Part shown: piece after piece, positions 41,190 to 58,331 of the stretch
Layout: each line of letters begins with the position of its first letter
Position numbering within the stretch: the stretch's first letter is position 1
NCBI GenBank assembly: GCA_963674755.2
Contig: CAXXVS010000003.1
Location: 1,504,001-1,568,000 of the forward strand
Reading direction: 5' to 3'
Source of the DNA: Desulfobacterales bacterium
GTDB taxonomy: Bacteria > Desulfobacterota > Desulfobacteria > Desulfobacterales > UBA5852
Length of the DNA stretch: 64,000 nucleotides
Made by a program: the position numbers and the translations under genes
Notes under the pieces: model-generated
What the model saw: the letters and a program-made list of their open reading frames with translations, nothing else
Databases searched by the model: none
Told to the model about the DNA's origin: nothing

Positions 41190-41369
41190 GAGCCATGATA
41201 GGGACGCTCCAAGCTTTTAAGCATGCCGATTGTTGACAAGGGGGAACCTATGAAGACCATAAAAGCGTTTCCCCGATGCTGTCCGCCCGTAACACATATC
41301 CTGCCGGGCATTTCGGTGTAGCTTAAGAAAATGGGGGGACGAATTGTATACCCCGAAGCGATACTGCAA

Positions 41370-41855
41370 ATGAATCCAAAATTAGAAATAAGGAAGGCGA
41401 CAGAAGGGGATTTGCCCGTCATCTATTCTTTGGTCAAAAGCCTCGCGGAACATGTCAATCTCTCCCATGAACTATTGGCAAGCGAGGAGGATCTCCAAAA
41501 GTACCTGTTTGGATCCAATGGCTTCGTCGAAGTTCTCATCGGCTACTATGAGTCGCAGCCCATCGCTATGATCATATTCTACCCAAGCTTCTCGACGTTT
41601 ATCGGTAAGCCTGCGCTGCATATCGAGGACTTCTATATAAAAGCGGAATTCAGGGGTATGGGGATTGGCAAAGCAATATTTACGCATCTGGCAGATTTGG
41701 CATTGAGCCGCGACTGTGGAAAAATTGAGTGGTACGCCGCCGAGTGGAACAAAAAGGCATTGGAGTTCTATGTAAAAATGGGGGCCGAAAAACTGGAACA
41801 GCGGAAATTATTCAGGCTCTCCGTTGCGGCCATGCAAAAATTGGTGGCGCAATAA
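41370..41855 (+). CDS. GNAT N-acetyltransferase (spermidine/spermine acetyltransferase-like)
   Basis: [29 protein letters not shown]. Confidence 0.88.
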
Positions 41856-41968
41856 TTATCGAAATTATTTTCCAGATGGCTCTTTATGCGGGTTTTCCGG
41901 CGACCTTAAACGGCTTGTTTGCCGTCAAAGAAATCTTCGATGAAAGATATTTGGATATCGGCCCATAA
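41856..41968 (+). pseudogene. 3' remnant of a carboxymuconolactone decarboxylase family gene
   Basis: [27 protein letters not shown] with no start codon or N-terminal part. Confidence 0.65.
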
Positions 41969-41993
41969 CGAAAAGAAATAGGATGGATGGCCC

Positions 41994-42719
41994 ATGGTTG
42001 ATAAGACAGAGCTTGTCGCAAAGTTACAGCAGTGGGGGGCCAGTATTGTCCGTGTGGCGGATACGGGCAGACTGTCCGGTATCGATACGGAACCGGAAGA
42101 TCTCCTGGACGGTTTTCCCCGGGCGGTGAGCATTGCCGTGCATCTTTCGGATGCGGTCATGGACATGATTGACAGGCAGCCCACCCCCCTATATTCATCC
42201 CATTACGGCCGGGTGAATGCGCTGCTCGACGATCTGGCCGTCCGCGCTACGAACCTATTGCAGAAAGAGGGCGCGCGCGCTGTTCCCATTCCGGCCAGCC
42301 AAACCCTCGATTCCGAAAAATGGACCTCGTATCTATCACACAAGGCCGTTGCCATCGCGGCGGGCATCGGCTGGCAGGGCAAAAGCCTTTTGGTGGTCAA
42401 TCCTGATTTCGGTCCCCGGATCAGGCTGACAACCGTTCTCACAGACGCCGATCTCGCACCGGATGCACCGATCAAGAACAGGTGCGGAAAATGCCATCAG
42501 TGTAAAGACCATTGCCCGGCGGGAGCCATCATCGGTGCCAGCACTGAGAGCCATTATGCCACCCGCTCGGAGGCCGTCGATCTCGCAAAATGCGTCTATC
42601 AGGTGCGTGACGTATTCGGTGAACTTCCGCATGTTACATCTTACATCTGTGGCATATGCATTAAGGTTTGCCCATGGGGCAATAAAGCGAAGCAAGCCCT
42701 TTCCTCAAGGGAAAGATAG
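41994..42719 (+). CDS. QueG/epoxyqueuosine-reductase-like Fe-S protein
   Basis: SHKAVA..AGIGWQGKS, FGPRIRL..VLT, CGKCHQCKDHCP, CGICIKVCP. Confidence 0.85.
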   Translation: MVDKTELVAKLQQWGASIVRVADTGRLSGIDTEPEDLLDGFPRAVSIAVHLSDAVMDMIDRQPTPLYSSHYGRVNALLDDLAVRATNLLQKEGARAVPIPASQTLDSEKWTSYLSHKAVAIAAGIGWQGKSLLVVNPDFGPRIRLTTVLTDADLAPDAPIKNRCGKCHQCKDHCPAGAIIGASTESHYATRSEAVDLAKCVYQVRDVFGELPHVTSYICGICIKVCPWGNKAKQALSSRER

Positions 42720-42913
42720 GCCATTAGTTTTGATTTAAACCCTCCCCCTCGGGTGGCGACCCCGTGGAGGTTCAACCGATCCGGGGAGAGTTTTTGTAAG
42801 CGGATTCTTCATTTTCTTGCACGTGCAAGAAAACGGAAGCAATCACGCCTCGGCGTGACAGGCTTCAAACGCCCGTGTTCCGCGCATAACCATTCGATAG
42901 AGGGTGAATCAAA

Positions 42914-43303
42914 TTGGATATAACGATTGAAAATGTAAAGAATGATCAGTTCGCTAAGCTGCTTGGGATCGAGATCGTGGAAGTCAGAATCGGTTATGCC
43001 TTGCTGAAACTCCAGGTTGAAGAAAAGCATCTAAATGGCATCGGCATGGTGCAGGGGGGCGCCATATTCACCTTGGCCGATTATGCGTTCGGTGTGGCGG
43101 CCAACGCCGACGGCAGCACGGTGGTGGGCATCAATGCCGGCATTTCCTATTTCAAACCACCCAAAGGGAAAACCATTTATGCCGAGGCCATGGAAGAAAA
43201 CAGCAATACTAAGATATGCGGGTACAAAGTGCTCGTAAAAGACGAAGATGGATCCTTGGTCGCATCCTTTTCAGGGCTGGGGTACAAGAAATATAAAAAA
43301 TGA
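42914..43303 (+). CDS. PaaI-family hotdog thioesterase
   Basis: FAKLLGI, HLNGIGMVQGGAIFTLAD. Confidence 0.88.
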   Translation: MDITIENVKNDQFAKLLGIEIVEVRIGYALLKLQVEEKHLNGIGMVQGGAIFTLADYAFGVAANADGSTVVGINAGISYFKPPKGKTIYAEAMEENSNTKICGYKVLVKDEDGSLVASFSGLGYKKYKK

Positions 43304-43842
43304 CCTATTCGATCGAACTTTATTTCGATCGCCGATTCGAAGAGAAGCTGCGATCGCTGTGGGATGAGCTTGAAAAGGCCGGCCTGCCGTCCGTATTCTC
43401 GAAAATGGGGAGCCGGCCCCATCTGACGCTTATCATCCTGGATCGTTGCGATGAAGATCATGTTGCCGGTTTGATTGATCGTCATGTGAAGGAGCATTTC
43501 AAGTTTTCTATAGCTTTTCCGGCCTTTTCAATAATACCCGGTGTCCGGAATTCCGTTTTCCTGACGCCTGTCATAAAGCCAGAATTAATTGATATCCAAA
43601 GGAGTCTGTATAATCTTATTGAAGAAAATAGCTATTCCATTCAAGAGCACTATGCACCTCATAACTGGCTTCCCCATTGTTCGATATCAAAAGAGCTGTC
43701 TCCTGTCGAGGCCTTGAAAACCCTTGAAGTTTGTCTATACTGTGGGCTCAAAGAGGACGCATTGGTTACGGAAATCGGGCTTATAGAATTCAGACCAAGA
43801 AAGATGATAAAAACAATTGGACTATCGGATCGCTATGATTAA
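43300..43842 (+). CDS. 2H phosphoesterase (2'-5' RNA ligase family)
   Basis: Two HxT/S motifs: RPHLTL and LPHCSI. Confidence 0.82.
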   Translation: MTYSIELYFDRRFEEKLRSLWDELEKAGLPSVFSKMGSRPHLTLIILDRCDEDHVAGLIDRHVKEHFKFSIAFPAFSIIPGVRNSVFLTPVIKPELIDIQRSLYNLIEENSYSIQEHYAPHNWLPHCSISKELSPVEALKTLEVCLYCGLKEDALVTEIGLIEFRPRKMIKTIGLSDRYD

Positions 43843-43929
43843 AACGCCTAAAACACGCAACTTCACAGAGGCAAGGTGACAAAAAGATCTCACCAGTGAT
43901 TGAGGGCGGTTTTTCGAGAAAGGATGATT

Positions 43930-44235
43930 ATGATTACCTGTCATCTGAGATATACGATTGATCCATACAAGCTCGAAGCCTTTGAGAAATATGCGAAGAT
44001 TTGGATACCTTTGGTCAATAAGTTCGGGGGGACCCATCATGGCTACTTTTTGCCCCATGAGGGCGCCAATAATGTTGCCGTAGCGTTGTTCAGCTTTCCT
44101 TCGCTTGCCGACTATGAAGTTTATCGCGGCAAGATCCGTAGTGATCCGGATTGTCTAAAGGCATTCAAGCATGCCGAAGACACACGGTGTGTCATCAGTT
44201 TCGAGCGCAGTTTTATGAAGCCTGTCCTTGAATAG
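43930..44235 (+). CDS. NIPSNAP family protein
   Basis: ITCHLRY.IDP, GGTHHGYFLP.EG, FPSLADYE.YR. Confidence 0.85.
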   Translation: MITCHLRYTIDPYKLEAFEKYAKIWIPLVNKFGGTHHGYFLPHEGANNVAVALFSFPSLADYEVYRGKIRSDPDCLKAFKHAEDTRCVISFERSFMKPVLE

Positions 44236-44270
44236 AAGGCTCGCCACTCTATTGATAATTGGAGGAGACA

Positions 44271-44786
44271 ATGGAGCTTACAGGAAAGAAAGTGATGATC
44301 CTGATCGAAAATATGTATAACGAATTCGAATACTGGTATCCCTACTACCGGCTGAAGGAAGCGGGGGCCGAGGTCGTCACGGTGGGTACCGGCAGTATGC
44401 AATACACCAGCAAATCAGGCTTGCCGGCCAAAGCGGATGCCGATGCGAAAAACCTGAAGGCGGCGGATTTCGACGGCATCGTCATTCCCGGCGGGTACGC
44501 ACCGGATCTGATGCGCCGCAATGCCGATATGGTGCGTCTGGTGAAGGAATCCTTTGACGCCGGCAAACTGGTGGCCGCCATTTGCCACGCCGGATGGATG
44601 CTGGCCTCGGCCAAGATCCTCGCCAACCGGCGCGTTACCTCCTTTTTTGCCATCAAGGACGATCTGATCCATGCCGGAGCGGACTGGACCGATGCGGAAG
44701 TCGTCGTGGACGGAAATCTGGTCACCAGCCGGACGCCGGACGATCTGCCGGTCTTCATGAAAGCGGTTATTGCCGTGTTGGCCTGA
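44271..44786 (+). CDS. PfpI/DJ-1 family (type 1 glutamine amidotransferase-like) protein
   Basis: E..E.WYP, IPGGYAPD, AICHAGW, SRTPDDL. Confidence 0.92.
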   Translation: MELTGKKVMILIENMYNEFEYWYPYYRLKEAGAEVVTVGTGSMQYTSKSGLPAKADADAKNLKAADFDGIVIPGGYAPDLMRRNADMVRLVKESFDAGKLVAAICHAGWMLASAKILANRRVTSFFAIKDDLIHAGADWTDAEVVVDGNLVTSRTPDDLPVFMKAVIAVLA

Positions 44787-44874
44787 TGGATAGGGTGTGA
44801 ATAGGCCTTGAGATCGCAGGGGGGGAGGCTTCGGGCCGCAACCGCCAACCGCCACATAGAACAGGGTATGGGCA

Positions 44875-45774
44875 GTGAAGATTTACCAGTATGACGCCTT
44901 TTCAACGGAACCCGACCGAGGAAATCCGGCCGGGGTCGTTCTCGATGCGGATCATCTCACGGAAGATGAAATGCAGGCGATCGCTACGGCGGTGGGATTC
45001 AACGAAACCGCGTTTATCTGCCGTTCCAAAATAGCCGATGTCAGAATTCGGTACTTTACACCGGGCCATGAAATGAACCTGTGCGGCCATGGCACGGTCG
45101 CATCCCTTATTGCGCTCTATCAGCAAAGGTCAAGGGTCGACATTCAAACGATCGAGACCAAAGCCGGTATTATCGAAGCCGCAATCCGAATCCGGGATGC
45201 TGAAGCAAGCGTCATTATGGAGCAGCTTCCCGCAAAATTCGTTCGTTTCGAAGGTGACGTTTCCAAATTGGCGTCGGCCTTGGGCATCAATGCGCGGGAT
45301 ATCGACCCAAGCCTTCCGATTGTCTATGGCAGTACCGGCATCTGGACCCTTTTGGTGCCGATCAAGAAACTGGCCTGTTTTAAAAAAATGACCCCCGCTA
45401 CCAAGGTATTCCCGGAGCTGTTGACCCAATTCCGGCACGCATCGATTCATCCCTTTTGTCTGGAAGTGGTCAACACGGGCGCCCACATGCATGGCCGCCA
45501 TTTTTCATCACCGTTTTCCGGAACAATTGAAGATCCGGTCACGGGAACGGCCTCGGGTGTCATGGGAGCCTACTACCTGAACTTCATCAGCCGGCGCAAA
45601 TCGGCTTCGATCGTCGTTGAGCAGGGTCAAGAGATCGGCCGCAATGGTTTTGTGACGGTCAACGTGGTGCCATCCAACGGGCAGATTAACGTGGCAATCG
45701 AAGGGACAGGCGTTTTTGTCAAAGAAATCGTGTTAAGGAACTCACGAGACGCGACTGCCGGATGCTCAGCATAG
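44875..45774 (+). CDS. PhzF family isomerase
   Basis: DAFS, GNPAGVV, NETAF, EMNLCGH, EDPVTGTASG, EQG.EIGR. Confidence 0.92.
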   Translation: MKIYQYDAFSTEPDRGNPAGVVLDADHLTEDEMQAIATAVGFNETAFICRSKIADVRIRYFTPGHEMNLCGHGTVASLIALYQQRSRVDIQTIETKAGIIEAAIRIRDAEASVIMEQLPAKFVRFEGDVSKLASALGINARDIDPSLPIVYGSTGIWTLLVPIKKLACFKKMTPATKVFPELLTQFRHASIHPFCLEVVNTGAHMHGRHFSSPFSGTIEDPVTGTASGVMGAYYLNFISRRKSASIVVEQGQEIGRNGFVTVNVVPSNGQINVAIEGTGVFVKEIVLRNSRDATAGCSA

Positions 45775-45789
45775 ATTGGCGTAGAGAAG

Positions 45790-45993
45790 ATGAATACAGC
45801 GACCTTGATGTGGGGCGTCCTGTTCGGATCGATAGGGTTCGGGTATTTCATGTACGGTCGGAAACAGAAAGCGGTTCTGCCCTTTCTAAGCGGCTTGGGC
45901 CTGATGGTTTGCCCCTATTTCATCACGAATACCATCCTTTTGGTATGTGCCGGCATTGTCCTGGTGGCCTTGCCTTTTGTGATCCGAAGATGA
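45790..45993 (+). CDS. Small membrane hypothetical protein
   Basis: LFGSIGFGYFMYGRKQ...PYFI; about three hydrophobic segments. Confidence 0.75.
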   Translation: MNTATLMWGVLFGSIGFGYFMYGRKQKAVLPFLSGLGLMVCPYFITNTILLVCAGIVLVALPFVIRR

Positions 45994-46121
45994 GGCTATG
46001 GCGCTGATCCATAAGCGCGCTGGCGCCAATCGTTTCAATCAAATCCGTTTTAGCGTCCCCTTCGAGGAGGCCACCGGAGGCCTGCCGCTATGCTGGAAAG
46101 AACGCAACGGGCCAACCTGAC

Positions 46122-46664
46122 ATGACATCAAACCGCCTAGAATTAAGGCTCTTGCGCCGGGAAGACGAGGTGTCTTTCAAGAAGGCGATTGCCGCTTTCG
46201 AGAGCGAGACGCCGCCCTTTGAATTCGCCTTCGATTTCGATGCCGCCATGCCTTTCGAAGCATACCTCAAGAAGCTCGAGGGATGGCCTTTGGGTAAAGA
46301 CCTGCCGGATAAATTCGTTCCGAATACGTTTCTGGTCGGGGTTGTCGGGGGGCAGATTGTCGGGCGGGTGTCGCTGCGGCACTGTTTAAACGATTTCCTC
46401 GCCAGCATTGGCGGCCACATCGGCTATGGCGTGATCCCCGCTTACCGGCGGAAGGGATACGCTACCGAGATGCTTCGGCAGACCCTCCCGATCTGTTCAT
46501 CACTTGGCATCGCCAAGGTGTTGATTACCTGCGATATTGGGAATCCGGGCTCAAGGAAAGTGATTGAGAACTGCGGCGGCGTCTTTGAAAATCTAACGGA
46601 CGCCCCCCAACTCGATGTTCAAAAAAGAAGGTACTGGATTGATTGTCCCCCTGTTGGTGATTAA
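46122..46664 (+). CDS. GNAT N-acetyltransferase
   Basis: VGRVSLRH.LN..L...GGHIGY, RRKGYA, N..SRKVIE.CGG. Confidence 0.88.
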   Translation: MTSNRLELRLLRREDEVSFKKAIAAFESETPPFEFAFDFDAAMPFEAYLKKLEGWPLGKDLPDKFVPNTFLVGVVGGQIVGRVSLRHCLNDFLASIGGHIGYGVIPAYRRKGYATEMLRQTLPICSSLGIAKVLITCDIGNPGSRKVIENCGGVFENLTDAPQLDVQKRRYWIDCPPVGD

Positions 46665-46699: not shown

Positions 46700-46723
46700 C
46701 AGGCGCCGTCGTAACGGCGCCTG
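46700..46723. terminator. Perfect hairpin between convergent genes
   Basis: CAGGCGCCGT-CGTA-ACGGCGCCTG. Confidence 0.55.
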
Positions 46724-46772: not shown

Positions 46773-47924
46773 TCAGGCCGCGGCATGCGCACTGGCGGCG
46801 CATTCGTTTTTGCCGATGTCCATGATCTCCTGCTGCTCTTCGTCCACGTCCACCAGCCCGGCGTTGATCTCACGAATCTTGGCGTATTCCTCGGGCTGGG
46901 GCCTCATGTTCGCCTCGATGAAGGCGAAGAAGGTCTTCTCATCGTCAATGGCGTATATGCTGGCGTTGTCGGTTTTGATTTTGGCCATGGGGGCGGCGAA
47001 GATCAGGTTCTCATCGGCCTCTTCCCAATCCATATAATGGCCCGGCAGGATCACCGTGTTGTCATCCAGATTCAGCAGGATCTCGGTCATGGTCTTGAAC
47101 AGCATGTCTGACCAGGCTTTCGCCATGCCGCCCAGATCGGGACGGCCGATGGATTTGATGAAAACCGTATCGCCGGAAATCAGGTACTTCCCGTCCACCC
47201 GGTAGCAGGTGCTGCCGGGGGTATGGCCGGGGGTATGAATAATCTCCACCTGGGGGCCGCCGTTGCGGAAGCTGTGGCGATCCCCGTCCCGGGCCGGTGT
47301 ATAGGGGAACTTGGCCCCTTTGAAGTCGTCGTCGGGCGCCACGATTTCCGCGCCGGTCGTCTGGCGCAGCATGTTGCTGCCGGAAATGTAATCGGCTTGG
47401 CGGTGGGTTTCGAAGGTTTTGGTGATGGTGCAGCCCTTCTCTTTGGCGAAGTCCAGATAAAAAGGGACATTTTTGGCCGGGTCGAAGACCATCATTTCAT
47501 TGCCGCTGATCAAGCCGTAGCTGCAGGAGGCTTTGCCGGGCCGCCGGAACTGGTAAAGCTCATACCCGTCGCCGTCGGCGATGAGGGCCGGTTCCAGCAG
47601 GTTGCCCCAGGCTTTGATGCCCACTTTCATATGGGCCACGTCCTCATACCCGTGATTGGCCAGGATTTCACCGACGAATTTGGACGAGCCCTCCTTGGCG
47701 CACACGATGCGCACCTTCCTGCCTTGGGGCACACGGGCGATGCTTTCCGCCTCCCATTCGATGAATTCCATATAGGGCACATTGATCATATCGATCGGAT
47801 AAGGTCCTTCCACCTTGAAACGCGCAAATTCGGCATCGTTGCGCACGTCCAGCAGCAGGAAGTCCTCCTTGCGGGTCAGCCAATTAAAAAGATCGTGGGC
47901 GCTAAAGGCTTGCACTTCCATCAT
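46773..47924 (-). CDS. Rhodanese-MBL fold fusion (persulfide dioxygenase/sulfurtransferase-like)
   Basis: N-terminal LLDVRN...VCAKEGSS rhodanese; MBL motifs ETHRQADYISG, TPGHTPGS, SGDT, GRPDL, LPGH; C-terminal NECAAS. Confidence 0.88.
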   Translation of the reverse strand: MMEVQAFSAHDLFNWLTRKEDFLLLDVRNDAEFARFKVEGPYPIDMINVPYMEFIEWEAESIARVPQGRKVRIVCAKEGSSKFVGEILANHGYEDVAHMKVGIKAWGNLLEPALIADGDGYELYQFRRPGKASCSYGLISGNEMMVFDPAKNVPFYLDFAKEKGCTITKTFETHRQADYISGSNMLRQTTGAEIVAPDDDFKGAKFPYTPARDGDRHSFRNGGPQVEIIHTPGHTPGSTCYRVDGKYLISGDTVFIKSIGRPDLGGMAKAWSDMLFKTMTEILLNLDDNTVILPGHYMDWEEADENLIFAAPMAKIKTDNASIYAIDDEKTFFAFIEANMRPQPEEYAKIREINAGLVDVDEEQQEIMDIGKNECAASAHAAA

Positions 47925-48122
47925 CGTTCCTCCCGTGGGCTCATGGGTTCAGGACAAAGATACGCTACCCGCCGACCCTGTCAAGAGGGTGTCGGACGGG
48001 TATGACATTTCCCCAAACAGTCTATGGGATACAAACAGTAAGCGGATCAGGGATGGTGTAGGCGCCCGGACCCCCACCTCATACCTTTATGAGTCGCCAT
48101 TTCCCCAGGCGTTACACGTGAC

Positions 48123-48158
48123 GAACAACAAGCGCCGGGGGGATGACCCCCCGGCGCT
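48123..48158 (-). terminator. Intrinsic terminator after the FadL-like gene
   Basis: AGCGCCGGGGGG-loop-CCCCCCGGCGCT followed by TGTTGTT on the minus strand. Confidence 0.7.
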
Positions 48159-48196
48159 GCTATCGTTGGGAACCGCAAACAGAGGCTCTGTCGCGG

Positions 48197-49477
48197 CTAG
48201 AACCGCCAGGTGAAACCGAAATCGACGGCCTGCTCGCTCAGGTTCGATTTGATTTGCACCGCGCGTCCTTGCGGATCCGTCCCGTTTTCGGTGATGTCGT
48301 TGGAGAAACCATACATATACCCGACGTTGAGTTCCACCGTCGGGGTGATCTGGTAGCCAACCCCGAGGGTCACATGCTGCTCCACCACGGCCGGGAAGCC
48401 GATCGTGCGGAAGGATTCATAGTAGTAGGTGGGGATGAGATTGCCCTGCACGTTGGTGACGCTGTTGGGCATGCCGAGCAGGTTGAAGCTGCCGTCCCAG
48501 CCGTTGTGCTGGTCGACCGGACTTTCCGCATAGTTGTAGCCGGCCCGCAGGAACAACCCCTGGATGGGCTGCCACTGGGCACCGATGGCGAAAACCCATT
48601 GGTCATTCCAGTCGAAGTCGTCGTAGCCTTTGGCGTCGGACCAGTTGATCCATTTCGTATCCGCCTCCACCAGCAGTTCAATACCGGGGAAAAAGTAGGC
48701 GGCACCGAAACCCAACTGCTGGGGGGCCTCCAGGTCGAGGTCGTCGCGGAAGCCGTTCTGGTCGAAGTCGGTCACGTGGTCGAAGGTGGCTTTCTGGGCG
48801 GAGATATAGGTCAACCCCAGGGACAGGTTGTCGATGGGTTTGTAGATGATGCCCGGCTGAAAGCCGAAGGCGTAGGCGGTGGAGCCGCCGTCGCCCAGAT
48901 CGAGGGTTTCATAGTCCACATGGACGGCCAGCCCCAGGGACAGATTGGGCAGGAGCTGGAAGGCAAGGGACGGGGCGAATTTCATGATCTGCAATTCGGT
49001 ATAGGTCCCGGAGGCCAACGGCGCCCCGCTGGGAGAATAGGTCGCGAAGTCGAGGGACGTGTCCCTGTAATCCACTCCCATACCGCTTACGCCATAGGCT
49101 GCCAGCCCGAAACGCCAGTTCTGGGGCGAATCCGAAATGGGAAGCGAAAGACCAATGGCCGGAATGGCATAGACATTGTCTTGGCTGTCGGACTTGACGA
49201 CCCCGTCGGCGGTGGTGATCTTGGCATCGACTTTCGGCATGAACAGGGTTCCGGCGAAATTCACCTCGGTGGACGGACAATAGGGGCCGAAACACATGGC
49301 GGCCGGGTTGGAGAAAACGGCGCTGATCGCATCCTGGGGAGCCGCAATACCGGTTCCCCCCATCGCCCGGGAAATGGGGCCGATGGCGATCAGGTTGGTG
49401 CCGTTGGTGGCCAGGGCCGCCGGTGCCAGCATCAGCGAACAGGCCAGGATTGCCATCAATAAATAAAACTTCCTCAT
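48197..49477 (-). CDS. FadL/OmpP1/TodX family outer-membrane channel
   Basis: Signal peptide; ATNG...G..SRAMGG hatch, NPAAM motif; beta-barrel pattern; C-terminal TWRF. Confidence 0.88.
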   Translation of the reverse strand: MRKFYLLMAILACSLMLAPAALATNGTNLIAIGPISRAMGGTGIAAPQDAISAVFSNPAAMCFGPYCPSTEVNFAGTLFMPKVDAKITTADGVVKSDSQDNVYAIPAIGLSLPISDSPQNWRFGLAAYGVSGMGVDYRDTSLDFATYSPSGAPLASGTYTELQIMKFAPSLAFQLLPNLSLGLAVHVDYETLDLGDGGSTAYAFGFQPGIIYKPIDNLSLGLTYISAQKATFDHVTDFDQNGFRDDLDLEAPQQLGFGAAYFFPGIELLVEADTKWINWSDAKGYDDFDWNDQWVFAIGAQWQPIQGLFLRAGYNYAESPVDQHNGWDGSFNLLGMPNSVTNVQGNLIPTYYYESFRTIGFPAVVEQHVTLGVGYQITPTVELNVGYMYGFSNDITENGTDPQGRAVQIKSNLSEQAVDFGFTWRF

Positions 49478-49627
49478 GGTTGCTTACCTCCATACTCACA
49501 TCGTTAAATCCGGTCCCCGTCCTTTGTGCGGGGACTGTTGCCCGAGATAGACGACCATGGGCCGTGCCATACGGCTCACGATCATGGCTAAACAGCGGCT
49601 CGGCGCGCGGGTCGAAACCGATCGGTT

Positions 49628-50884
49628 TCAGGCGGGAACCAGAGCGTCGGCCACCATTGAAGACAAGAAGGTCACATCCACCTCCATTTTATAATGTTTG
49701 TTGAGGTCGCTCAGCTGGGCGTGGCAGTTTTCACAGGCTGTGGTGAGGATCTTGGCCCCTGTCCCTTGGACCTGATCCACCTTGACCCGGGCGGATTTCA
49801 TGCGGAAATCATGGGTCTCATCCCCCAGGGCCACCAGGCCGCCGCCCCCGCCGCAGCACCAGTTGTAGGCCGGCTCCGGGGACAATTCCCGGTAATCGTC
49901 GGTCAGGTGCTGCAGAATGTAGCGCGGCGGATCGATCACGCCGCCGTTGCGGGCAATTTGGCAGGGGTCGTGGTAGGTGATCGGGACATTGAATTTGGAC
50001 TTGTCCAACCGGATGCGGCCCTCCTTAAGATAGCGGGCGTGCACATCGGTGATGGACGACACCGTGAAGGGCTGCTTGCCGGAGAGCTGCTTCATGACCC
50101 GATAGGCTGTGCCGCACTCGCAGATGCAAACTTCCTTGACCTTGAGCCGCTTGGCTTCGTTGACGATGCGCTCCAGGATCAGTTTGGTCTTGGTGGGATC
50201 CCCCACAAAGGCGCCGAAATTGACGGCTTCAAAGAAACTCAGGGTCCATTTTTCTCCGGCGGCATTGAAAACGGCCGCGGCCGGGATGATCGAATGGGCG
50301 CCGGCCAGGGCCACATAGAGCAGGTCGGCCCCTTCCACATCCACCGGGATAACGGCTTCGCCCGCTTCCATCTGCCACTTGGCGACGACTTCCTCTTCCA
50401 GGCGCTTGAGTCCCTGGATGAAGCCCTCCTTGAACATTTCGATGGACTTGCCTTTTTCAATGGACATATCCGCCAGCATGGTCAGGGTTTCCGGCTCCGT
50501 GTGGGCGCCGATCAACAGCAGCTTGGCGATGGACATGAGCATCTGGGTGTCGATGCTGAAAGGGCAGTAGAGCATGCAGCGCCGGCAGCCGGTGCAGGAG
50601 TAGGCGGCATCGAAGAGCTCCTCCAATGCCATTTCGGTCAGTTCTTTGGACTCGCCCACCGAAGGCCAGACCTTGCCCCGGGCCTTGAAGTATTTTTTAT
50701 AGAGCCGCCGGATGATTTCATGCCGGTAGGCGGCGATGTAGCGTACCTGCCCCATGGAGGCATAAACGTGGCAGGCCTCCGTACAGGTCCCGCAGCGGGT
50801 GCAGGTTTCGAGATAGAAGCGCATGGCTTCGTTGAGTTTGCTCTGGAAAAGACCCAGCAGGTCGTCCCGTGTCTTGGCATCCAT
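49628..50884 (-). CDS. DsrK/HdrD-like Fe-S protein with CCG domain
   Basis: CTRCGTCTEAC, CTGCRRCMLYCP, CECG, YHDPCQ, CCGGGGG, ACENC. Confidence 0.88.
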   Translation of the reverse strand: MDAKTRDDLLGLFQSKLNEAMRFYLETCTRCGTCTEACHVYASMGQVRYIAAYRHEIIRRLYKKYFKARGKVWPSVGESKELTEMALEELFDAAYSCTGCRRCMLYCPFSIDTQMLMSIAKLLLIGAHTEPETLTMLADMSIEKGKSIEMFKEGFIQGLKRLEEEVVAKWQMEAGEAVIPVDVEGADLLYVALAGAHSIIPAAAVFNAAGEKWTLSFFEAVNFGAFVGDPTKTKLILERIVNEAKRLKVKEVCICECGTAYRVMKQLSGKQPFTVSSITDVHARYLKEGRIRLDKSKFNVPITYHDPCQIARNGGVIDPPRYILQHLTDDYRELSPEPAYNWCCGGGGGLVALGDETHDFRMKSARVKVDQVQGTGAKILTTACENCHAQLSDLNKHYKMEVDVTFLSSMVADALVPA

Positions 50885-50887
50885 GGG

Positions 50888-51598
50888 TTAGCCCCTCCGG
50901 AGTTTGTTCATGGGTAGTGATAAAAAGGCGTGCATGGCCTGGCTGAAAGGGAAGAAGATCAGAAACAGGTTGGCCAGGAAGACATGCAGGAGCAGCATGA
51001 AGGAATGTCCGCTTTCCGTCACGCTGGCAGGCAGATAGGGCTCGAAAGCGATCAGGCTGCCGAGATAGGTGCGATAGTCGTCCACCGTCATGCCATCGTA
51101 GTAGTACCAGTTGCGGGCCCAGTCCATCTGGCTGCCGAAGAGCACCACCAGGAAGAGCAGGATCAGCAGATAGTAGTCTTCCGGGACCGACAGCTCGCGC
51201 ACCGGCGAACGGAAGCGCCGAAAGAGGAAATACAGCAGGGACAGGGCCGTCAGCAGCCCCACCATTCCTTTGCCGAGGAAAATTTCATGCGGGATGATCT
51301 GCAGGATGGGGTAGTCCCCGAAAAGCTCCAGGTGACCGATGATCAGCAGCAGCAGGCAGGCATGAAAGATGATGAGGAACACCCACAAAAGCGGCTTATG
51401 GCGCCGGACGGTTGGGAAGAGAAAGGTGTCGTGCAGGGCCCACAGCCAGGCAGGCTTTTTGGCCGGATAGATCTGCAAGGTGGTCGGGTGTTTGGGTGCC
51501 TTGAAGATGTTGACCAGACGCACCGTCGTGCCGATCACAAAGACGGCGGCTGCCAGATAAACCATGGGCACGAGAATGATATAGGATAGTGTTTCCAC
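50888..51598 (-). CDS. DsrM/NarI-like membrane b-type cytochrome
   Basis: About five TM helices with His pairs FH...GH and LH...MH; adjacent to the DsrK-like gene. Confidence 0.85.
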   Translation of the reverse strand: METLSYIILVPMVYLAAAVFVIGTTVRLVNIFKAPKHPTTLQIYPAKKPAWLWALHDTFLFPTVRRHKPLLWVFLIIFHACLLLLIIGHLELFGDYPILQIIPHEIFLGKGMVGLLTALSLLYFLFRRFRSPVRELSVPEDYYLLILLFLVVLFGSQMDWARNWYYYDGMTVDDYRTYLGSLIAFEPYLPASVTESGHSFMLLLHVFLANLFLIFFPFSQAMHAFLSLPMNKLRRG

Positions 51599-51666
51599 GA
51601 AGCCCTCCCTAGGATGCCGAAGCGGGCGGGCCCCCACCGCCCCTGGCGGTGAGAAGCCCGTGCGGT

Positions 51667-51909
51667 TTACGCGTTGCGCTTGATAAGAAACCGGATCTCT
51701 TTACCGTCCTGATCGGTTTTGAGGATCTCGTTGCCGCTGGTACGCGCCCAGGCCGGGATATCCGTCAGGGAGCCGGGGTCCGTGGAAATGGCTTCGATCA
51801 CTTCGCCCACGGCGACGTCCTTGATGCCCTTGCTGACTTTGACGACCGGCATGGGACAGGCCAGACCTTTCAAATCAAATGTTTTGCTGATTGCGATGTC
51901 GTTGCTCAT
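51667..51909 (-). CDS. tusA: Sulfurtransferase TusA family
   Basis: DLKGLACPMP, TDPGS..DIPAW. Confidence 0.9.
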   Translation of the reverse strand: MSNDIAISKTFDLKGLACPMPVVKVSKGIKDVAVGEVIEAISTDPGSLTDIPAWARTSGNEILKTDQDGKEIRFLIKRNA

Positions 51910-51935
51910 TGTCGTTCTCCTCTCATTATGTTGGT

Positions 51936-52481
51936 TTAGATAAACAACTGAATTTTGCTGTCCATGGCTTCTTCCAGAAACTTGGCCACACCGCAGTATT
52001 CCAGGCCTTCGTACTGGATCATCTCCTCGTGCTTGAAGCCCATGAGGTCCATGGACATTTCGCAGATAAAAATGCGCACGCCGAGTTCCTCGGCCATGGC
52101 GATCATCTGGTCGAGGGAGGCCACATTTTTCTGCTTCATGAGGGATTTCATCATAGTGGTGCCCATGCCCCCCATGTTCATCTTGGAGAGCTTGACCTTG
52201 TCGGCCCCCTTGGGCAGCATTTTCCCGAACATGGTTCCCATCATGTCCTTGCCGCCGACGTTTTTGTCCTTGGCGCGCAGCACCGGGGTGCCCCAGAAGG
52301 TGAAGAACATGACCACATCCATCCCCATGGCGACCGCGCCGGTGGCAATGATGAACGATGCCAGGGCCTTGTCCAGATCGCCGCTGAAGCAGATCATGGA
52401 GAGCTTGTTCTCCGGGCTTTTTTTCTGAAGTGCATCCAGTTGGGCTTTCATTTCGGCCAGCTGGGTTTCGAGTTGCTCCAT
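51936..52481 (-). CDS. DsrE2 (DsrE/DsrF/DrsH-like) sulfur-carrier protein
   Basis: FSGDLDKA, FFTFWG, MGGMG, ICEMSMDLMG. Confidence 0.88.
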   Translation of the reverse strand: MEQLETQLAEMKAQLDALQKKSPENKLSMICFSGDLDKALASFIIATGAVAMGMDVVMFFTFWGTPVLRAKDKNVGGKDMMGTMFGKMLPKGADKVKLSKMNMGGMGTTMMKSLMKQKNVASLDQMIAMAEELGVRIFICEMSMDLMGFKHEEMIQYEGLEYCGVAKFLEEAMDSKIQLFI

Positions 52482-52560
52482 GGTGTCCTCCTAATAAGTT
52501 AATGCTATAAACATAAAAAACGGAATGAAATAAGTAAGATAAAAAATAAGGCGTTCTAAA

Positions 52561-52579
52561 TTGTATATAGTATGTACAA
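52561..52579. promoter_or_regulatory. Putative MarR operator palindrome
   Basis: TTGTATAT-AGT-ATGTACAA in the AT-rich region upstream of dsrE2. Confidence 0.55.
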
Positions 52580-52637
52580 TATATCCAAAAAAATCGCCCC
52601 CTTGTGCGGCTAAGAGAGCGTATTGCAGTCCTGCGGG

Positions 52638-53117
52638 TTACACCATCAGTTCTTTGACGGCCTCCATGGAAGCCTTGAGCAGTTCCAGATTGGTCAGCAT
52701 GGCTTTGCGCTGTTCAGGTGCCAGATGGGAGAGTACCTCCAGGTGTATGGCTTCCAAAAACGCGTTGATTTCGTTTAGCTTGTCCTGCCCCTTGGGGGTC
52801 AGGCTGAGCAGCGTGATGCGCGAATCCTCCGGATCCTTAATCCGCTGGATCAGCTTGCGGCGCACCATACCGTCGATAATACGGGTTACCCGGCTTTTAA
52901 CCACATTCATTTTGTGGGCGATGCCCTTGGGCGTCAGGTAGCGCTCATTGGCAAAGAGCTGCAGGCAGCGCAGCTCGGCATCCGGCAGCGCGAAGCGGTC
53001 GCTCTGGTACTGCATGCGTTCCTGGCAGCATTGAAAGAGCTTGGCGATCAACTCCTGAAACTGGACCACCTGGTAGGCGGAGATGGCATTAGCCGGGTTG
53101 CGTTGATTATTATACAT
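52638..53117 (-). CDS. MarR family transcriptional regulator
   Basis: LTPKGIA..MNVVKSRVTRII, R..DPEDSR...LTPKG. Confidence 0.9.
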   Translation of the reverse strand: MYNNQRNPANAISAYQVVQFQELIAKLFQCCQERMQYQSDRFALPDAELRCLQLFANERYLTPKGIAHKMNVVKSRVTRIIDGMVRRKLIQRIKDPEDSRITLLSLTPKGQDKLNEINAFLEAIHLEVLSHLAPEQRKAMLTNLELLKASMEAVKELMV

Positions 53118-53124
53118 GGTGTGA

Positions 53125-53152
53125 ACTATAGCAGGATTTCAAAAGGCGTCAA
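53125..53152 (-). promoter_or_regulatory. Sigma70 promoter of marR (probably leaderless)
   Basis: TTGACG-N16-TATAGT ending 7 nt before the ATG; no RBS. Confidence 0.6.
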
Positions 53153-53330: not shown

Positions 53331-54164
<834 letters not shown>

Positions 54165-54326
54165 ATCGCTTCCCACGGTCAGTTCCTCTGTCTTGGCTCG
54201 GGCATCCATTAGTAGCATAGTTATATCTGATGTTGGTTGTCCAAGGGGCAGGCCATCCGGTGACAGCCTAACAATTCGGCAGGCCGGCGTCAATCGGTGC
54301 TCGGCCTGCCGAAGATTTCAGCCTGT

Positions 54327-55379
54327 TTACTTCATCGTGAGCGGTTTGAGGGTCTTGGCGGCATTGTGGTACGCTTCACGTTCTTTGTCGGGCATGGGAA
54401 TCAAGCCCTTTTCCGCCAGGTAGCCGTCCGGCCCCCAGGCCTTCTCGGAGGAGAATTCATTCAAATATTCCTGAATTCCGGGAATGACCCCCACGTGGGC
54501 TTTCTTGACATAGAAGAAAAGCGGACGGGATACCGGATAGGAGCCGTCGGCAATGGCCTCGAAGGTGGGCTGCACGCCGTCCACAAAGGAGCCTTGAATG
54601 ACATCGGTGTTCTGGTCGAGGAAGCTGAAGCCGAAGATGCCCAAGGCGTCGGGGTTGGCGCCCAGCTTCTGCACGATCAGGTTGTCGTTCTCACCGGCTT
54701 CGATATAGGCGCCGTCTTCACGGATGGTGTGGGCGGCTGCCTTGAACGCTTTCTTATCCTTTTTGCGCAGGGCCTTGAGCCAGTCGTATTCCTTAGCCCC
54801 GTCTTCCATAACGAGTTCCAGGAAGGCATCCCGGGTACCGGAGGTGGGGGGCGGGCCCAATACTTCGATCTTGGTGGCCGGCAGACTCCCATTGACGTCT
54901 TTCCAGGTTTGGTAGGGGTTGGGAACCAGCTTTTCCGCACCCGACGGATCCGGTACGTCCTTGGCCAGGGCCAGGTAGAGGTCCTTGCGGGTCAACTTCA
55001 AGGGTGCCGCTTTCTTGGAATTGGCCACCACGATACCGTCATAGCCGATCTTGATTTCGACGATGTCCTTGACACCGTTGGCCTGGCACTTTTCGTATTC
55101 CGATTTTTTAATGGCCCGGGACGCATTGGTGATGTCCGGGGTTTCGACGCCGACACCCTCGCAGAACAGCTTGAACCCGCCGCCCGAGCCGGTGGATTCG
55201 ATTTTGGGCGTATTGAAACTGGTGGTTTTCCCGAACTGCTCGGCAACGACCGTGGCGAAGGGATAGACCGTTGAAGATCCGACGATGCTGATGGTGTCGC
55301 GGGCCGAGGCCGCATAAACGGTTCCGGCGGTTGCCATAAAGGCCAGAGCGGTAGCAATGACAAGCGATTTCCTGATCAT
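54327..55379 (-). CDS. pstS: Phosphate ABC transporter substrate-binding protein
   Basis: Signal peptide; VGSSTVYP, STGSGGG, NASR, SGTRD, YPVSRPLF. Confidence 0.94.
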   Translation of the reverse strand: MIRKSLVIATALAFMATAGTVYAASARDTISIVGSSTVYPFATVVAEQFGKTTSFNTPKIESTGSGGGFKLFCEGVGVETPDITNASRAIKKSEYEKCQANGVKDIVEIKIGYDGIVVANSKKAAPLKLTRKDLYLALAKDVPDPSGAEKLVPNPYQTWKDVNGSLPATKIEVLGPPPTSGTRDAFLELVMEDGAKEYDWLKALRKKDKKAFKAAAHTIREDGAYIEAGENDNLIVQKLGANPDALGIFGFSFLDQNTDVIQGSFVDGVQPTFEAIADGSYPVSRPLFFYVKKAHVGVIPGIQEYLNEFSSEKAWGPDGYLAEKGLIPMPDKEREAYHNAAKTLKPLTMK

Positions 55380-55471
55380 ACGTTTCCTCCTGAAAGTAAA
55401 ATGGAAAGACATCAATACCCGTTGTTTACGATTGTGCGCCTATGCAAGCGCGCCCTATATACAACCCCTGT

Positions 55472-55487
55472 TTTAGGGTTTTGTTAG
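55472..55487 (-). promoter_or_regulatory. Pho-box-like repeats upstream of pstS
   Basis: Minus strand CTAAC / CTAAA with 11-bp period. Confidence 0.5.
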
Positions 55488-55534
55488 CACCTGCAAAAAA
55501 CTGCTGCGGCACCCCAAAAAGTTCTTCGAAATCC

Positions 55535-56833
55535 CTACCAGCGGCGTTCGAATTTCTTCCGAAGGACCACGGCCGTGGCATTCATGATGATCAGGAAGGC
55601 CAGCAGCACGATGGTGGCGGCTGAGGTCCGTTCCACAAAGGCCCGTTCCGGGCTGTCCGCCCACAGATAGATCTGAACCGGCAGCACGGTGGCCGCATCG
55701 GTCAGGCCGTGGGGCACATCGACGATAAAGGCCACCATGCCGATCATGAGCAGTGGGGCGGATTCCCCCAGAGCCCGGGCCATGCCGATGATGGTGCCCG
55801 TCATAATTCCCGGCATGGCCAGGGGCAGCACGTGGTGCATGACCATTTGCATCTTGGAGGCGCCAACCCCCAACGCCGCTTCGCGGATAGAAGGAGGTAC
55901 GGATTGCAGCGAGGCCCGTCCGGCGATGATGATCGTCGGCAGGGTCATCAAGGTCAGCACCAGGCCCCCCACCAGCGGGGCCGAGCGGGGCAGGCCGAAA
56001 AAGTTCAGGAACACGGCCAGGCCCAAAAGGCCGAAAACAATGGAGGGCACGGCCGCCAGATTGTTGATGTTGACTTCGATGAAATCCGTCCAGCGGTTCT
56101 TGGGGGCGAACTCTTCAAGATAGACCGCCGAGGCGATGCCGATGGGAAACGAGAGCGCCAGGGTGACCAGCAGGGTGTAGACGGACCCCATCACCGCTCC
56201 CAGAATACCGGCCAGCTCGGGTTCGCGCGAGTCGCCGGCGGTAAAGAAAGTCCGGTTGAAGCGCTTTTCGATCCGGTTCTCGGATTTCAGACGATCGACC
56301 CAGGCCAGTTGGATATCCTTGATGCGCCGCTCGCTCTCGGGGACGTTCAGATCAAAATGGCCCTTCAGCAGCATGTCGATATCATCGTCCGCCGGAACCC
56401 AGACCGGCACGGTCTTGCCGATCATCTCCGGCGAATTGAGCACCATCTTGCGAATCTGGAAGGCGGCCCCGCTGCTGACGAGTTTGTAGAGCATGCGCTT
56501 GTCTTTACGGGAGCTGACCTCCGGGAACATGCGCCGCAGGGACGCTTTGATGATGCCGGAATAATCGGCCGTGGCCAGGGCCTCCTGGCTCAGGAGGGTC
56601 GGATCGAAGAAGACATCCAGCCGCACAAAGGTTTGCTCGAAAGCCGAATACCCCTTGCTGATGATGCTGCCGAAAAGGATCGAGAGGAACAGCAGGCTGG
56701 CCAGGATGGCGCCGATGCCGTAGAAGCGGAAGCGGCGCTCCCGACGGTAGCGACGGCCCAGTCCGGCGTTGACGATATCGATGGCACGGCGTTGGGAGGC
56801 CCGGCCACCTGTTTTGAATCCGGTCTTATTCAT
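55535..56833 (-). CDS. pstA: Phosphate ABC transporter permease
   Basis: YLEEFA, NINNLAAVPSIVFGLLG, IREAALGVGA, RALGESAP. Confidence 0.94.
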   Translation of the reverse strand: MNKTGFKTGGRASQRRAIDIVNAGLGRRYRRERRFRFYGIGAILASLLFLSILFGSIISKGYSAFEQTFVRLDVFFDPTLLSQEALATADYSGIIKASLRRMFPEVSSRKDKRMLYKLVSSGAAFQIRKMVLNSPEMIGKTVPVWVPADDDIDMLLKGHFDLNVPESERRIKDIQLAWVDRLKSENRIEKRFNRTFFTAGDSREPELAGILGAVMGSVYTLLVTLALSFPIGIASAVYLEEFAPKNRWTDFIEVNINNLAAVPSIVFGLLGLAVFLNFFGLPRSAPLVGGLVLTLMTLPTIIIAGRASLQSVPPSIREAALGVGASKMQMVMHHVLPLAMPGIMTGTIIGMARALGESAPLLMIGMVAFIVDVPHGLTDAATVLPVQIYLWADSPERAFVERTSAATIVLLAFLIIMNATAVVLRKKFERRW

Positions 56834-58217
56834 ACTGCTCCCGGTATTTGCGCACCACATGCAGGGCGACGATGTTGAGCATCAAGGTGGCGATAAACAG
56901 CACCAACCCCAGGGCGAAGGCCGCCAGGGTCTTGGGGCTGTCGAATTCCTGGTCCCCCACCAGCAGGGTAACGATCTGCACGGTGACCGTGGTGACGGTT
57001 TTAAGAGGGTTGGCGGTCAGATTGGCCGCCAGTCCGGCCGCCATGACGACAATCATGGTTTCGCCGATGGCCCGGGATATGGCCAGGAGGACCCCGCCTA
57101 CGATGCCGGGCAGGGCCGCCGGCAGCACCACCTGTTTGATGGTTTCGGATTGGGTCGCTCCCAGTCCGTAGGCCCCGTCCCGCATGGCTTGGGGCACGGC
57201 ATTGATGACGTCGTCGGACAGGGAGGACACGAAGGGGATGATCATGATGCCCATGACCAGTCCGGCGGCCAGGGCGCTTTCCGAGGAGACATCGAGTCCC
57301 AGCGTCATACCGGCATCGCGGATGAAAGGGGCCACTGTCAGGGCGGCGAAAAACCCGTAAACCACGGTGGGGATGCCGGCCAGGATTTCCATGAGCGGCT
57401 TGGCAATGGCGCGAAAGCGGCGGTTGGCGTATTCGGAGAGATAGATGGCCGCCATGAGACCGATGGGCACGGCCACCGCCATGGCAATGGCGGAAATCAT
57501 CAATGTGCCGGCGAAGACCGGAATTGCGCCGAACGCGCCGGAGGAGCCCACCTGGTCGGCCCGGATGGCCATCTGGGGGCTCCACTTCAGGCCGAAGAGA
57601 AATTCCGTCAGCGGGATTTTGTCAAAGAAGCGGATGGCTTCGAAGAGCACCGAGAGCAGGATGCCGATGGTGGTGAAGATCGCGATGGTGGAGCAGGCGA
57701 TCAGGAGCCAGTTAATGATGCGCTCCACATGGTTGCGGGCCCGCAGCCTGGGCGAGATGAGGCGCAGGGACAAGGCAATGGCGGCCATGATCAGGGCCAG
57801 GACCACCACGGCCAGGGCCGCGGTGCTGACATGTTGAAGCTGATGGTAATGCTGGGCCGCAGCCTGCATGGTGGGGTCGATGTCCCCTGAGACGATGTTG
57901 CCGCTGACCAGGTTGCGGATATCGTTGACGATCAGATTCAGACGGGCCGGCGGCAGGCTGCGAACCGCATCGGGCAGATCGGCCACGACCAGCTGCGTAA
58001 TGACCGCCGGTTCGAGAAAGGACCAGACGGCGAAGATCAGCAGGGCCGGCAGACCGCACCACAGCGCCGTCAACAGTCCGTAGTAGGCCGGGCGGGAATG
58101 CATCCGCAGCAGGCCGGCCCGGTCGCCGGCCACGGCAAAAGCGCGCTTTCTTCCCAGGACGTAGGCGGCCGAGGTCAGCAGCAAAATGGCACTCAGGATG
58201 GTCACAGGTGACAACAT
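56826..58217 (-). CDS. pstC: Phosphate ABC transporter permease
   Basis: AIYLSEY, ILAGIPTVVYG, GAYGLGAT, RAIGETM. Confidence 0.94.
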   Translation of the reverse strand: MLSPVTILSAILLLTSAAYVLGRKRAFAVAGDRAGLLRMHSRPAYYGLLTALWCGLPALLIFAVWSFLEPAVITQLVVADLPDAVRSLPPARLNLIVNDIRNLVSGNIVSGDIDPTMQAAAQHYHQLQHVSTAALAVVVLALIMAAIALSLRLISPRLRARNHVERIINWLLIACSTIAIFTTIGILLSVLFEAIRFFDKIPLTEFLFGLKWSPQMAIRADQVGSSGAFGAIPVFAGTLMISAIAMAVAVPIGLMAAIYLSEYANRRFRAIAKPLMEILAGIPTVVYGFFAALTVAPFIRDAGMTLGLDVSSESALAAGLVMGIMIIPFVSSLSDDVINAVPQAMRDGAYGLGATQSETIKQVVLPAALPGIVGGVLLAISRAIGETMIVVMAAGLAANLTANPLKTVTTVTVQIVTLLVGDQEFDSPKTLAAFALGLVLFIATLMLNIVALHVVRKYREQYE

Positions 58218-58304
58218 AAGCCTCTATTGGCATGGTGGTTCCGGACCGCTTCAGGATCAATTCCGACGGTCCGTCAATTGCTGGGAAATAGGTAAAGGGG
58301 CCGC

Positions 58305-58331
58305 GTTAGGAATGTGTTAAGGAAGGGTTAC
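58305..58331 (-). promoter_or_regulatory. Pho-box-like repeats upstream of pstC
   Basis: Minus strand GTAAC, TTAAC, CTAAC at exact 11-bp period. Confidence 0.7.

Follow-up and report, generated by a model that had tools for sequence, protein, structure and literature searches.

A MarR-linked operon of sulfur carriers, a DsrMK-like pair and a FadL-clade channel in a Desulfobacterales bacterium: a candidate unit for sulfane sulfur

What could a bacterium of the Desulfobacterales do with an additional DsrMK-like pair that is encoded beside sulfur carriers and an outer-membrane channel? The question is raised by the locus at 46773..53152 of a 64,000-nucleotide stretch of DNA, hereafter the window (assembly GCA_963674755.2, contig CAXXVS010000003.1, positions 1,504,001 to 1,568,000). 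An earlier note, made from the letters alone, had read it as a MarR-controlled sulfur-trafficking locus for uptake of hydrophobic zero-valent sulfur, relay on TusA and DsrE2, and quinol-linked reduction or disproportionation. The analysis makes it highly probable that the unit handles sulfane sulfur of some kind; the full reading, a sulfane-sulfur-inducible unit of uptake, relay and quinone-linked reduction, stands at about an even chance.

The span holds seven open reading frames (ORFs), all on the minus strand, co-oriented and judged genuine. Profile matches to named families gave the order marR, dsrE2, tusA, M-like, K-like, fadL and rhodanese-MBL. ORF and profile evidence thus bore out the genes, order, span and family names of the earlier note.

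52638..53117, minus strand: MarR-family repressor, Cys30/Cys31/Cys51 (PF01047)
51936..52481, minus strand: DsrE2-type sulfur carrier, Cys140 (PF13686, 181 bits)
51667..51909, minus strand: TusA sulfur carrier, CPMP motif, Cys18 (PF01206)
50888..51598, minus strand: NarI/DsrM-like membrane cytochrome b (M-like), five hydrophobic segments (PF02665)
49628..50884, minus strand: DsrK/HdrD-like Fe-S/CCG protein (K-like) (PF13183, PF02754)
48197..49477, minus strand: FadL/TodX-family outer-membrane channel, NPA motif followed by Cys62/Cys67 (PF03349, 98.9 bits, cut-off 29.7)
46773..47924, minus strand: rhodanese-persulfide-dioxygenase-like fusion (Rho-PDO), HRQADY motif, accessory (PF00581 and PF00753)

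From marR to the rhodanese-MBL gene the intergenic gaps are 156, 26, 68, 3, 150 and 272 bp, the 3 bp lying between the M-like and K-like genes. The likely start of the M-like gene is GTG at 51598, preceded by a ribosome-binding site. None of the seven window proteins reached an NCBIfam equivalog cut-off.

A fixed five-gene core

Scanning with the K-like protein gave matches in 217 stretches. These comprised 167 relatives, and the best 80, at 77-91% identity, were retained; the loci are related by descent and partly redundant, and a few share one assembly. Where at least 3 kb of upstream sequence was present (n = 57), the M-like gene and dsrE2 were found in 57/57 loci, and tusA and marR in 56/57 each. 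The genes marR-dsrE2-tusA-M-like-K-like are a fixed core, and their order is far beyond chance. fadL was present in 26 of the 67 loci with 2 kb downstream, and the rhodanese-MBL gene in 12 of the 59 with 3.5 kb downstream. The seven-gene locus of the earlier note therefore stands for its first five genes, while fadL is optional and the rhodanese-MBL gene lies outside the core. At one locus (L074) the core is tandemly duplicated and fadL and Rho-PDO are frameshifted, which may be an assembly artefact.

The module is widespread yet patchy. The K-like gene occurs in 23 of 400 genomes sampled evenly across the phylum and in 3 of 12 other genomes of the host genus (G444, a probable duplicate of another listed genome, was excluded from the counts); 11 of the 23 also hold the close FadL clade. 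In cultured Desulfacinum infernum (L005) the operon is present including fadL. Contigs X19/X20 from RNA runs were rejected as evidence of expression, strand or co-transcription, as they cover the locus partially and mostly at 90-95% likeness.

No dsrJOP or dsrC gene lies within 46773..53152, in agreement with the earlier note, and no yeeE or small DsrE-like gene was seen in this span. Elsewhere the host genome (6.7 Mb, 97% complete) carries a canonical DsrK (729 bits, cut-off 400), three DsrC-family genes, dsrA and aprA. Thus, the host is a sulfate reducer and the M-like/K-like pair is an extra.

The M-like/K-like pair and its carriers

In the M-like protein His79, His89, His205 and His223 are invariant (106/106 each) and would be the ligands of two haems b, as in DsrM; the protein scored below the DsrM, TmcC, NarI and HmcE cut-offs. 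The K-like protein has two cubane motifs and one complete five-Cys CCG motif, as DsrK does, with C308, C343, C344, C384 and C387, and indeed all cluster cysteines, conserved in 113/113. Its N-terminal CCG site is degenerate, so that the two complete CCG motifs of HdrD/HdrB are lacking. The T/GECGH motif given for DsrK (PMC10861901) is replaced by CECGT in 112/112 K-like sequences, the Cys being kept and the His lost; among 150 library representatives CECGT was found in only four, one close full-length relative and three short fragments.

The best NCBIfam match of the K-like protein was DsrK (NF045796), at 254.5 bits against a cut-off of 400. Scores were 39.3 bits for NF038037 (cut-off 300) and 217 and 212 bits for TmcB and HmcF (cut-offs 735 and 750). 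Trees were built with 44 or 26 of the 150 library representatives, selected as nearly full-length and assigned to families with hidden Markov models (HMMs). In them the module clade (100/99) was separate from the DsrK-containing clade (100/99), which includes the genome's own DsrK, and from TmcB/HmcF, with no firm branching order among the three. Judged by its sequence, the K-like protein is neither DsrK, TmcB nor HmcF and forms a clade of its own. The pair would thus be of the DsrMK/HdrDE kind, not a member of DsrMK though probably working like one. Two proteins of 660-670 aa (P0127 and P0135) resemble M-K fusions, and P0127 branches beside the module clade.

The K-like model (pLDDT 92.7) matched the folds of EtfD (9ojn, TM 0.68, the top match) and HdrB. 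Unlike the fused EMO/EtfD, M and K are two separate genes, and no ETF gene was recognised among those recurring neighbours that were scanned. No close solved structure was found for the K-like protein (one match, E 4e-8), and the plasmid search returned a single 29% match, in a hydrogenase cluster.

The core is independent of DsrABC. Of the 23 K-like genomes, 17 have dsrA; it was not found in the other six (G254, G300, G368, G439, G441, G445), most of which are incomplete assemblies. DsrC and dsrB were not found in these six either, in a search of 16 genomes picked partly for lacking dsrA. In G445, G439, G441, G300 and G368 no DsrK above the cut-off was found, the K-like protein of the module being the sole DsrK-family match there, and a search of four Dsr-free carriers for aprA found none. 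G445 is a single 3.18-Mb contig with the five-gene core intact. Thus, DsrC is unlikely to be the substrate of the pair. Together with the separate clade, the CECGT motif and the scores below cut-off, these carriers support the separateness from canonical dsrMKJOP claimed in the earlier note.

The co-encoded carriers DsrE2 and TusA are the natural substrate candidates. DsrE2 Cys140 is kept in 96/96 and TusA Cys18 in 91/91; DsrE2 matches PDB 3pnx at E 1e-30 and scores under the NF047629 cut-off. Persulfide transfer from DsrE to TusA was demonstrated for related carriers (PMC11094781). DsrK itself has a single CCG site and an extra catalytic Cys, both kept in the K-like protein, and menadiol drives its trisulfide reduction with release of sulfide (PMC10861901). 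Speculatively, the extra invariant Cys255 of CECGT might do the work of the second cysteine of DsrC, which is missing in TusA.

The channel, the operator and the accessory gene

The sulfur-associated FadL clade is the most striking accessory of the unit. The channel belongs to the FadL/OmpP1/TodX family by PF03349 above cut-off, a modelled barrel fold and the NPA motif, and scored only 18.1 bits against FadL proper (NF007988, cut-off 585). The 61-row FadL clade carries NPAAMCFGPYCP. Its Cys pair was found in 92 of 104 FadL rows, a count that is partly selected since one of the six search patterns held the Cys-pair motif, and also in 19 of 21 rows originating from K-like-anchored loci. By homology the pair would lie between the hatch and the first strand; it may be a plain structural disulfide.

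A fadL-anchored scan kept 80 of 141 relatives, and 66 of these 80 loci have a sulfur context: 38 have the K-like gene within 3 kb and 28 another sulfur-carrier gene. Two have only marR, and no sulfur gene was seen in ten loci with a flank below 1 kb and in two with both flanks of 1 kb. The carrier genes of the 28 are different DsrE2 paralogues, TusA, YeeE and DsrC-like; some rest on weak or partial matches or may have the K-like gene cut off, but for 17/28 the upstream sequence extends 1 kb or more and shows no such gene. The earlier note had named a lack of synteny between fadL and the sulfur genes elsewhere as grounds for abandoning its reading; such synteny was found, in 26 of 67 K-like loci and in the 66 fadL loci.

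The alternative settings are marR-fadL-dsrE2 (a paralogue of 27-29% identity), dsrE2-tusA-fadL-yeeE and dsrC-like-dsrE2-fadL. The first occurs without M-K at L135, L136, L174, L186, L187, L207 and L209, most with an operator before fadL. Fifteen further fadL loci were taken from the phylum sample. These gave fadL-dsrE2 in G095, G284 and G228, and ArsR-fadL-FAD/CCG oxidase in G076, G341 and G168; no sulfur carrier was seen near fadL in G169, G077, G196 and G198. A sister FadL lineage stands at L249:3985-8499 (G249) in the order ArsR-fadL-SQR-dsrC-like-dsrE2-ygaP-like, where a true type III sulfide:quinone reductase (SQR; 596 bits, cut-off 525) directly follows fadL. In other members of this ArsR-linked lineage (L246, L247, L250) a FAD/CCG oxidase of 1020 aa takes its place. 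L248 and L251 fell inside the FadL clade in a quick tree, a placement treated as a probable artefact: the branch is very long, the Cys pair is absent and the neighbouring genes encode GMC oxidoreductases.

No fatty-acid context was found for this FadL clade. Plasmid searches returned distant FadLs only; six of them (of 43 records) had no sulfur-carrier gene among their annotated neighbours and stood mostly in aromatic-catabolism settings. The host genome's other FadL is placed between MscS genes. The nearest Atlas clusters, a lead only, are commonest in Verrucomicrobiota, Thermodesulfobacteriota, Aquificota, Pseudomonadota and Campylobacterota.

The MarR control claimed in the earlier note gained support from a conserved operator at marR and dsrE2. 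A palindrome, GTTCA-N5-TRAAC, was spotted by eye in dsrE2 upstream regions. At no more than one mismatch it occurs in 41/67 of these and in 53/59 marR upstream regions, against 2-3% of shuffles. The marR set is an independent test of the palindrome, the right half of which overlaps the start codon there; the equivalent site exceeds the shuffled 95th percentile in 58/59. A first guess from the window alone, ATTGTA-N9-TACAAT, was found in 0/67 at one mismatch and was replaced. With marR as the preceding gene, fadL has the palindrome in front of it in 7/10 loci; with the K-like gene preceding, in 0/61 (shuffles 0.4%). The rhodanese-MBL gene has it in 2/16. Promoter-like sites lie 5' of marR, dsrE2 and the rhodanese-MBL gene. 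The regulatory features of the window are as follows; operators are ranked among the 25 sites above 11 bits in the 6.7-Mb genome.

53125..53152, minus strand: sigma70-like marR promoter TTGACG-16-TG-TATAGT, 10/12 matches, consensus match only
53109..53129, no strand: operator-like palindrome over the marR -10 box and start codon, 13.6 bits, rank 6
52595..52620, minus strand: terminator-like hairpin after marR, z -0.5, weak since it folds no better than shuffles
52560..52580, no strand: operator-like palindrome upstream of dsrE2, overlapping the promoter-like site 52560-52587, 13.8 bits, rank 4
52495..52515, no strand: second operator-like palindrome, just 5' of the dsrE2 ribosome-binding site, 15.5 bits, rank 1
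48131..48158, minus strand: strong hairpin, probable terminator 3' of fadL, z -5.9, 0/200 shuffles as stable
47957..47984, minus strand: sigma70-like promoter of the rhodanese-MBL gene, 10/12 matches
46700..46723, minus strand: terminator-like hairpin closing the locus, z -3.35

The position of the marR site points to putative autoregulation. From family knowledge the adjacent MarR would bind the palindrome and answer sulfane sulfur, which MarR proteins can detect via cysteines (PMC11211675); here Cys30 is conserved in 85/86, Cys31 in 86/86 and Cys51 in 84/86 sequences. The other high-scoring sites of the genome form no clear regulon, most of the seven examined being inside ORFs or beside unrelated genes. 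Operator-like matches also lie near other CCG-protein genes (G000:C3:2318487 and C2:1391762). The former, with neighbours that we take to be an ETF-like cluster, is inside an ORF and thus probably a chance match.

The Rho-PDO gene of the window is probably transcribed separately, as judged from the strong hairpin after fadL, its own promoter-like site and the lack of an operator-like site before it (best -7.2 bits). Cys75, His174, His230, His234 and His296 of Rho-PDO are conserved in 15/15. Like the Desulfobulbales Rho-PDO, defined by a rhodanese and an MBL with HXQADY, the window protein has HRQADY; of the canonical persulfide dioxygenase metal-binding motif it retains the first His only. It occurs in 11 of the 400 phylum-sample genomes, none of them among the 23 K-like carriers. 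In G401 of the same genus (L266:11504-14079) Rho-PDO directly follows operators-marR-dsrE2-tusA, and M, K and fadL are absent there. In some lineages Rho-PDO seems to have been drawn into the regulon, as another possible outlet for the sulfur held by the carriers; to the locus with which the earlier note had listed it, it is a loose add-on.

Immediately upstream of marR, on the same strand, are phosphate ABC transporter and phoU genes (window 53331-59364), which also adjoin the module in G404 and G410. On the other side, window 38000-46000 has lower GC (47-54% vs about 60%) and small accessory genes, including a GNAT gene at 46122-46664. An intergenic element of about 170 bp at window 42720-42890 has dozens of similar copies among same-genus genomes; a repeat search across the locus gave families at chance level only.

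Proposed mechanism, alternatives and known systems

In the reading proposed here, sulfane sulfur would release the Cys-bearing MarR, which would repress its own gene and the operon through the palindromic operator. Zero-valent sulfur (S8, neutral polysulfanes or organic polysulfides) would pass inward across the outer membrane through the FadL-clade channel, cross the inner membrane and be bound in the cytoplasm as persulfide by DsrE2 and TusA. M (di-haem b) would oxidise quinol and K (non-cubane Fe-S) would release sulfide, making the pair a quinol:persulfide oxidoreductase that works reductively, possibly on TusA, with DsrE2/TusA serving in place of DsrC. The unit may serve to clear reactive sulfur, whether or not energy is gained in doing so. 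A wider extension is less likely than not: the unit could represent the first channel clade of the outer membrane in anaerobes that is dedicated to zero-valent sulfur, coupled to a DsrC-independent quinol:TusA-persulfide reductase, that is, a sulfur respiration without Psr or DsrAB spread in uncultured sediment Desulfobacterota, with the hatch Cys pair as its marker.

Several points weigh against the reductive reading. The polysulfide potential is about -260 mV. Menaquinol, at about -70 mV (PMC10861901), is a weak donor for polysulfide, so that reduction would be uphill at standard state. The loci are kin, so the counts overstate independence. fadL is missing from 41/67 loci, and a search of six Dsr-free genomes did not find it; import through the channel is therefore not needed for the core. 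At L122:7199-9186 and L123:4995-8743 a same-clade M-K pair stands without adjoining carriers (a TauE gene lies upstream of the pair at L123), and at L164 and L170 the FadL clade is present with no sulfur genes seen. The channel is closest to aromatic-hydrocarbon channels, and MarR cysteines also sense oxidants. No inner-membrane sulfur transporter was found in the window's locus, YeeE genes lying elsewhere; a second tusA (G000:C1:648014) and two YeeE-family loci (C1:774212-775183 and C1:1133321-1134378) could supply this step. Finally, the SQR-linked sister FadL fits oxidation and export as well.

The last point bears on the alternative that survives best, which is nevertheless doubtful. M-K would be a cytoplasm-facing sulfide:quinone oxidoreductase loading TusA/DsrE2, from which sulfur would go to DsrC, a DsrEFH-like set, Rho-PDO, or out through the channel. 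This direction would be downhill with menaquinone, and DsrE2/TusA are best known in oxidation pathways. The related FadL directly upstream of the type III SQR, dsrC-like and dsrE2 genes at L249 is in line with it, as are the small DsrE-like genes downstream of the module in 8/59 loci and the direct joining of operators and carriers to Rho-PDO in G401. However, the core is kept in genomes where DsrAB, DsrC or AprA was not found and which lack an evident onward sink, Rho-PDO and K-like genomes do not overlap in the 400-genome sample, and DsrK and HdrD act as reductases.

It is rather unlikely that the unit serves oxidant or disulfide-stress defence or the use of organic di- and polysulfides, with carriers and M-K repairing mixed disulfides and the channel passing small hydrophobic organosulfur. 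The channel profile is nearer TodX, CymD and TbuX (E 1e-40 to 1e-38) than FadL (1e-16), the K-like protein is an HdrD relative, near-identical DNA is present in rhizosphere, marsh and marine-sediment runs, and the distribution within the genus is patchy, all of which would suit such a role; yet in most loci examined the genes nearby encode persulfide carriers, YeeE and SQR rather than thioredoxins or enzymes for methyl-sulfur compounds.

Two further explanations are very improbable, to a similar degree. The pair could be a back-up DsrMK reducing DsrC-trisulfide, the carriers and channel being unrelated passengers. Extra dsrMK-only copies, which might include this clade, occur in Deltaproteobacteria (PMC10504309), second copies without dsrJOP being known there and in Archaeoglobus. 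The top NCBIfam match to DsrK, the dsrA of 17/23 carriers, and the sat and HdrA/QmoC-like genes that recur near the module in 8-9/80 loci (e.g. L042:10755-12029, L070:1641-3860, L071:3947-5143) also speak for this role, against which stand the clade outside DsrK, the loss of GECGH in every K-like sequence, the carriers in which DsrC was not found, and dsrE2 and tusA fixed in 56-57/57 loci. The other concerns selenium handling or biosynthetic sulfur/selenium supply by a TusA/YedF-type relay, with Se0 or organoselenides passing the channel. TusA indeed scores slightly higher as YedF (55.7 bits) than as TusA (50.9 bits), both below cut-off, and the SQR subtype at L249 is named a selenoprotein, but the neighbour families named, which cover part of the neighbours, include no recurrent gene for selenium or for cofactor synthesis.

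Least credible is an import of fatty acids or hydrocarbons by fadL with M-K as an ETF-linked quinone oxidoreductase of beta-oxidation: database names ('long-chain fatty acid transport protein'), the EtfD fold match, an acyl-CoA dehydrogenase near M-K at L122 and an acyl-CoA hydrolase near fadL at L164 would fit, but the channel's 18 bits for the FadL equivalog, the predominant sulfur context of fadL and the operator common to fadL and dsrE2 do not.

For disproportionation, the other outcome named in the earlier note, no evidence was found. The available parts of PMC13490349, PMC12998232, PMC12142623, PMC6378623 and PMC13293266 mention no such unit, the named disproportionators not having been tested directly, and no description of it was found in the accessible portion of the open-access literature, supplementary tables being outside this scope. 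PMC13490349, PMC12142623 and 10.1101/172254 treat the way in which insoluble sulfur passes the outer membrane as unidentified or as a matter of guesswork. With a definite channel clade, an operator that can be recognised and an enzyme pair marked by its sequence signature, the locus makes this question testable in a cultured carrier. Genes of the K-like family, which are annotated Fe-S oxidoreductase or DsrK-like, should not be taken as markers of sulfite reduction.

Among known systems, DsrMK of DsrMKJOP, the menaquinol:DsrC-trisulfide oxidoreductase (PMC10861901), shares a di-haem b subunit and an Fe-S subunit with two cubanes, one CCG site and a further Cys. The window pair differs in its separate clade, CECGT and scores below the HMM cut-offs, in its linkage to dsrE2/tusA under its own MarR, and in occurring also where dsrAB/dsrC were not found. 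The TusA/DsrE relays that feed sHdr or rDsr in sulfur oxidisers (PMC11094781) likewise set carriers beside a heterodisulfide-reductase-like enzyme; here the partner is the quinone-linked M-K, no sHdrA/B/C or LbpA genes were seen in the locus, and the organisms are anaerobes. The YTD cluster with DsrEFH type II (PMC13293266, PMC12998232) also has TusA and DsrE-type carriers in Desulfobacterota. It consists of YeeE and a DsrEFH-II trimer feeding DsrC, whereas the window has a PF13686 DsrE2, M-K and FadL and is not a YTD cluster. The Rho-PDO of cable bacteria and Desulfobulbales (PMC13047784), uncharacterised there too, trails the window operon and follows tusA in G401. TodX, CymD, TbuX and FadL channels share the fold (TM 0.6-0.69, model) and the NPA hatch motif, at 16-20% identity; the window channel differs in the Cys pair after NPA and in its sulfur-gene context. 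The earlier note knew of no FadL paired with this gene set, and that pairing still appears new; a FadL route for sulfur as such had already been proposed for CT2230 of Chlorobaculum tepidum (10.1101/172254), a FadL-family member of a sulfur regulon suggested to pass hydrophobic sulfur chains. That route is a proposal only, and CT2230 shares its regulation with sox and dsrC instead of with an operon of this kind.

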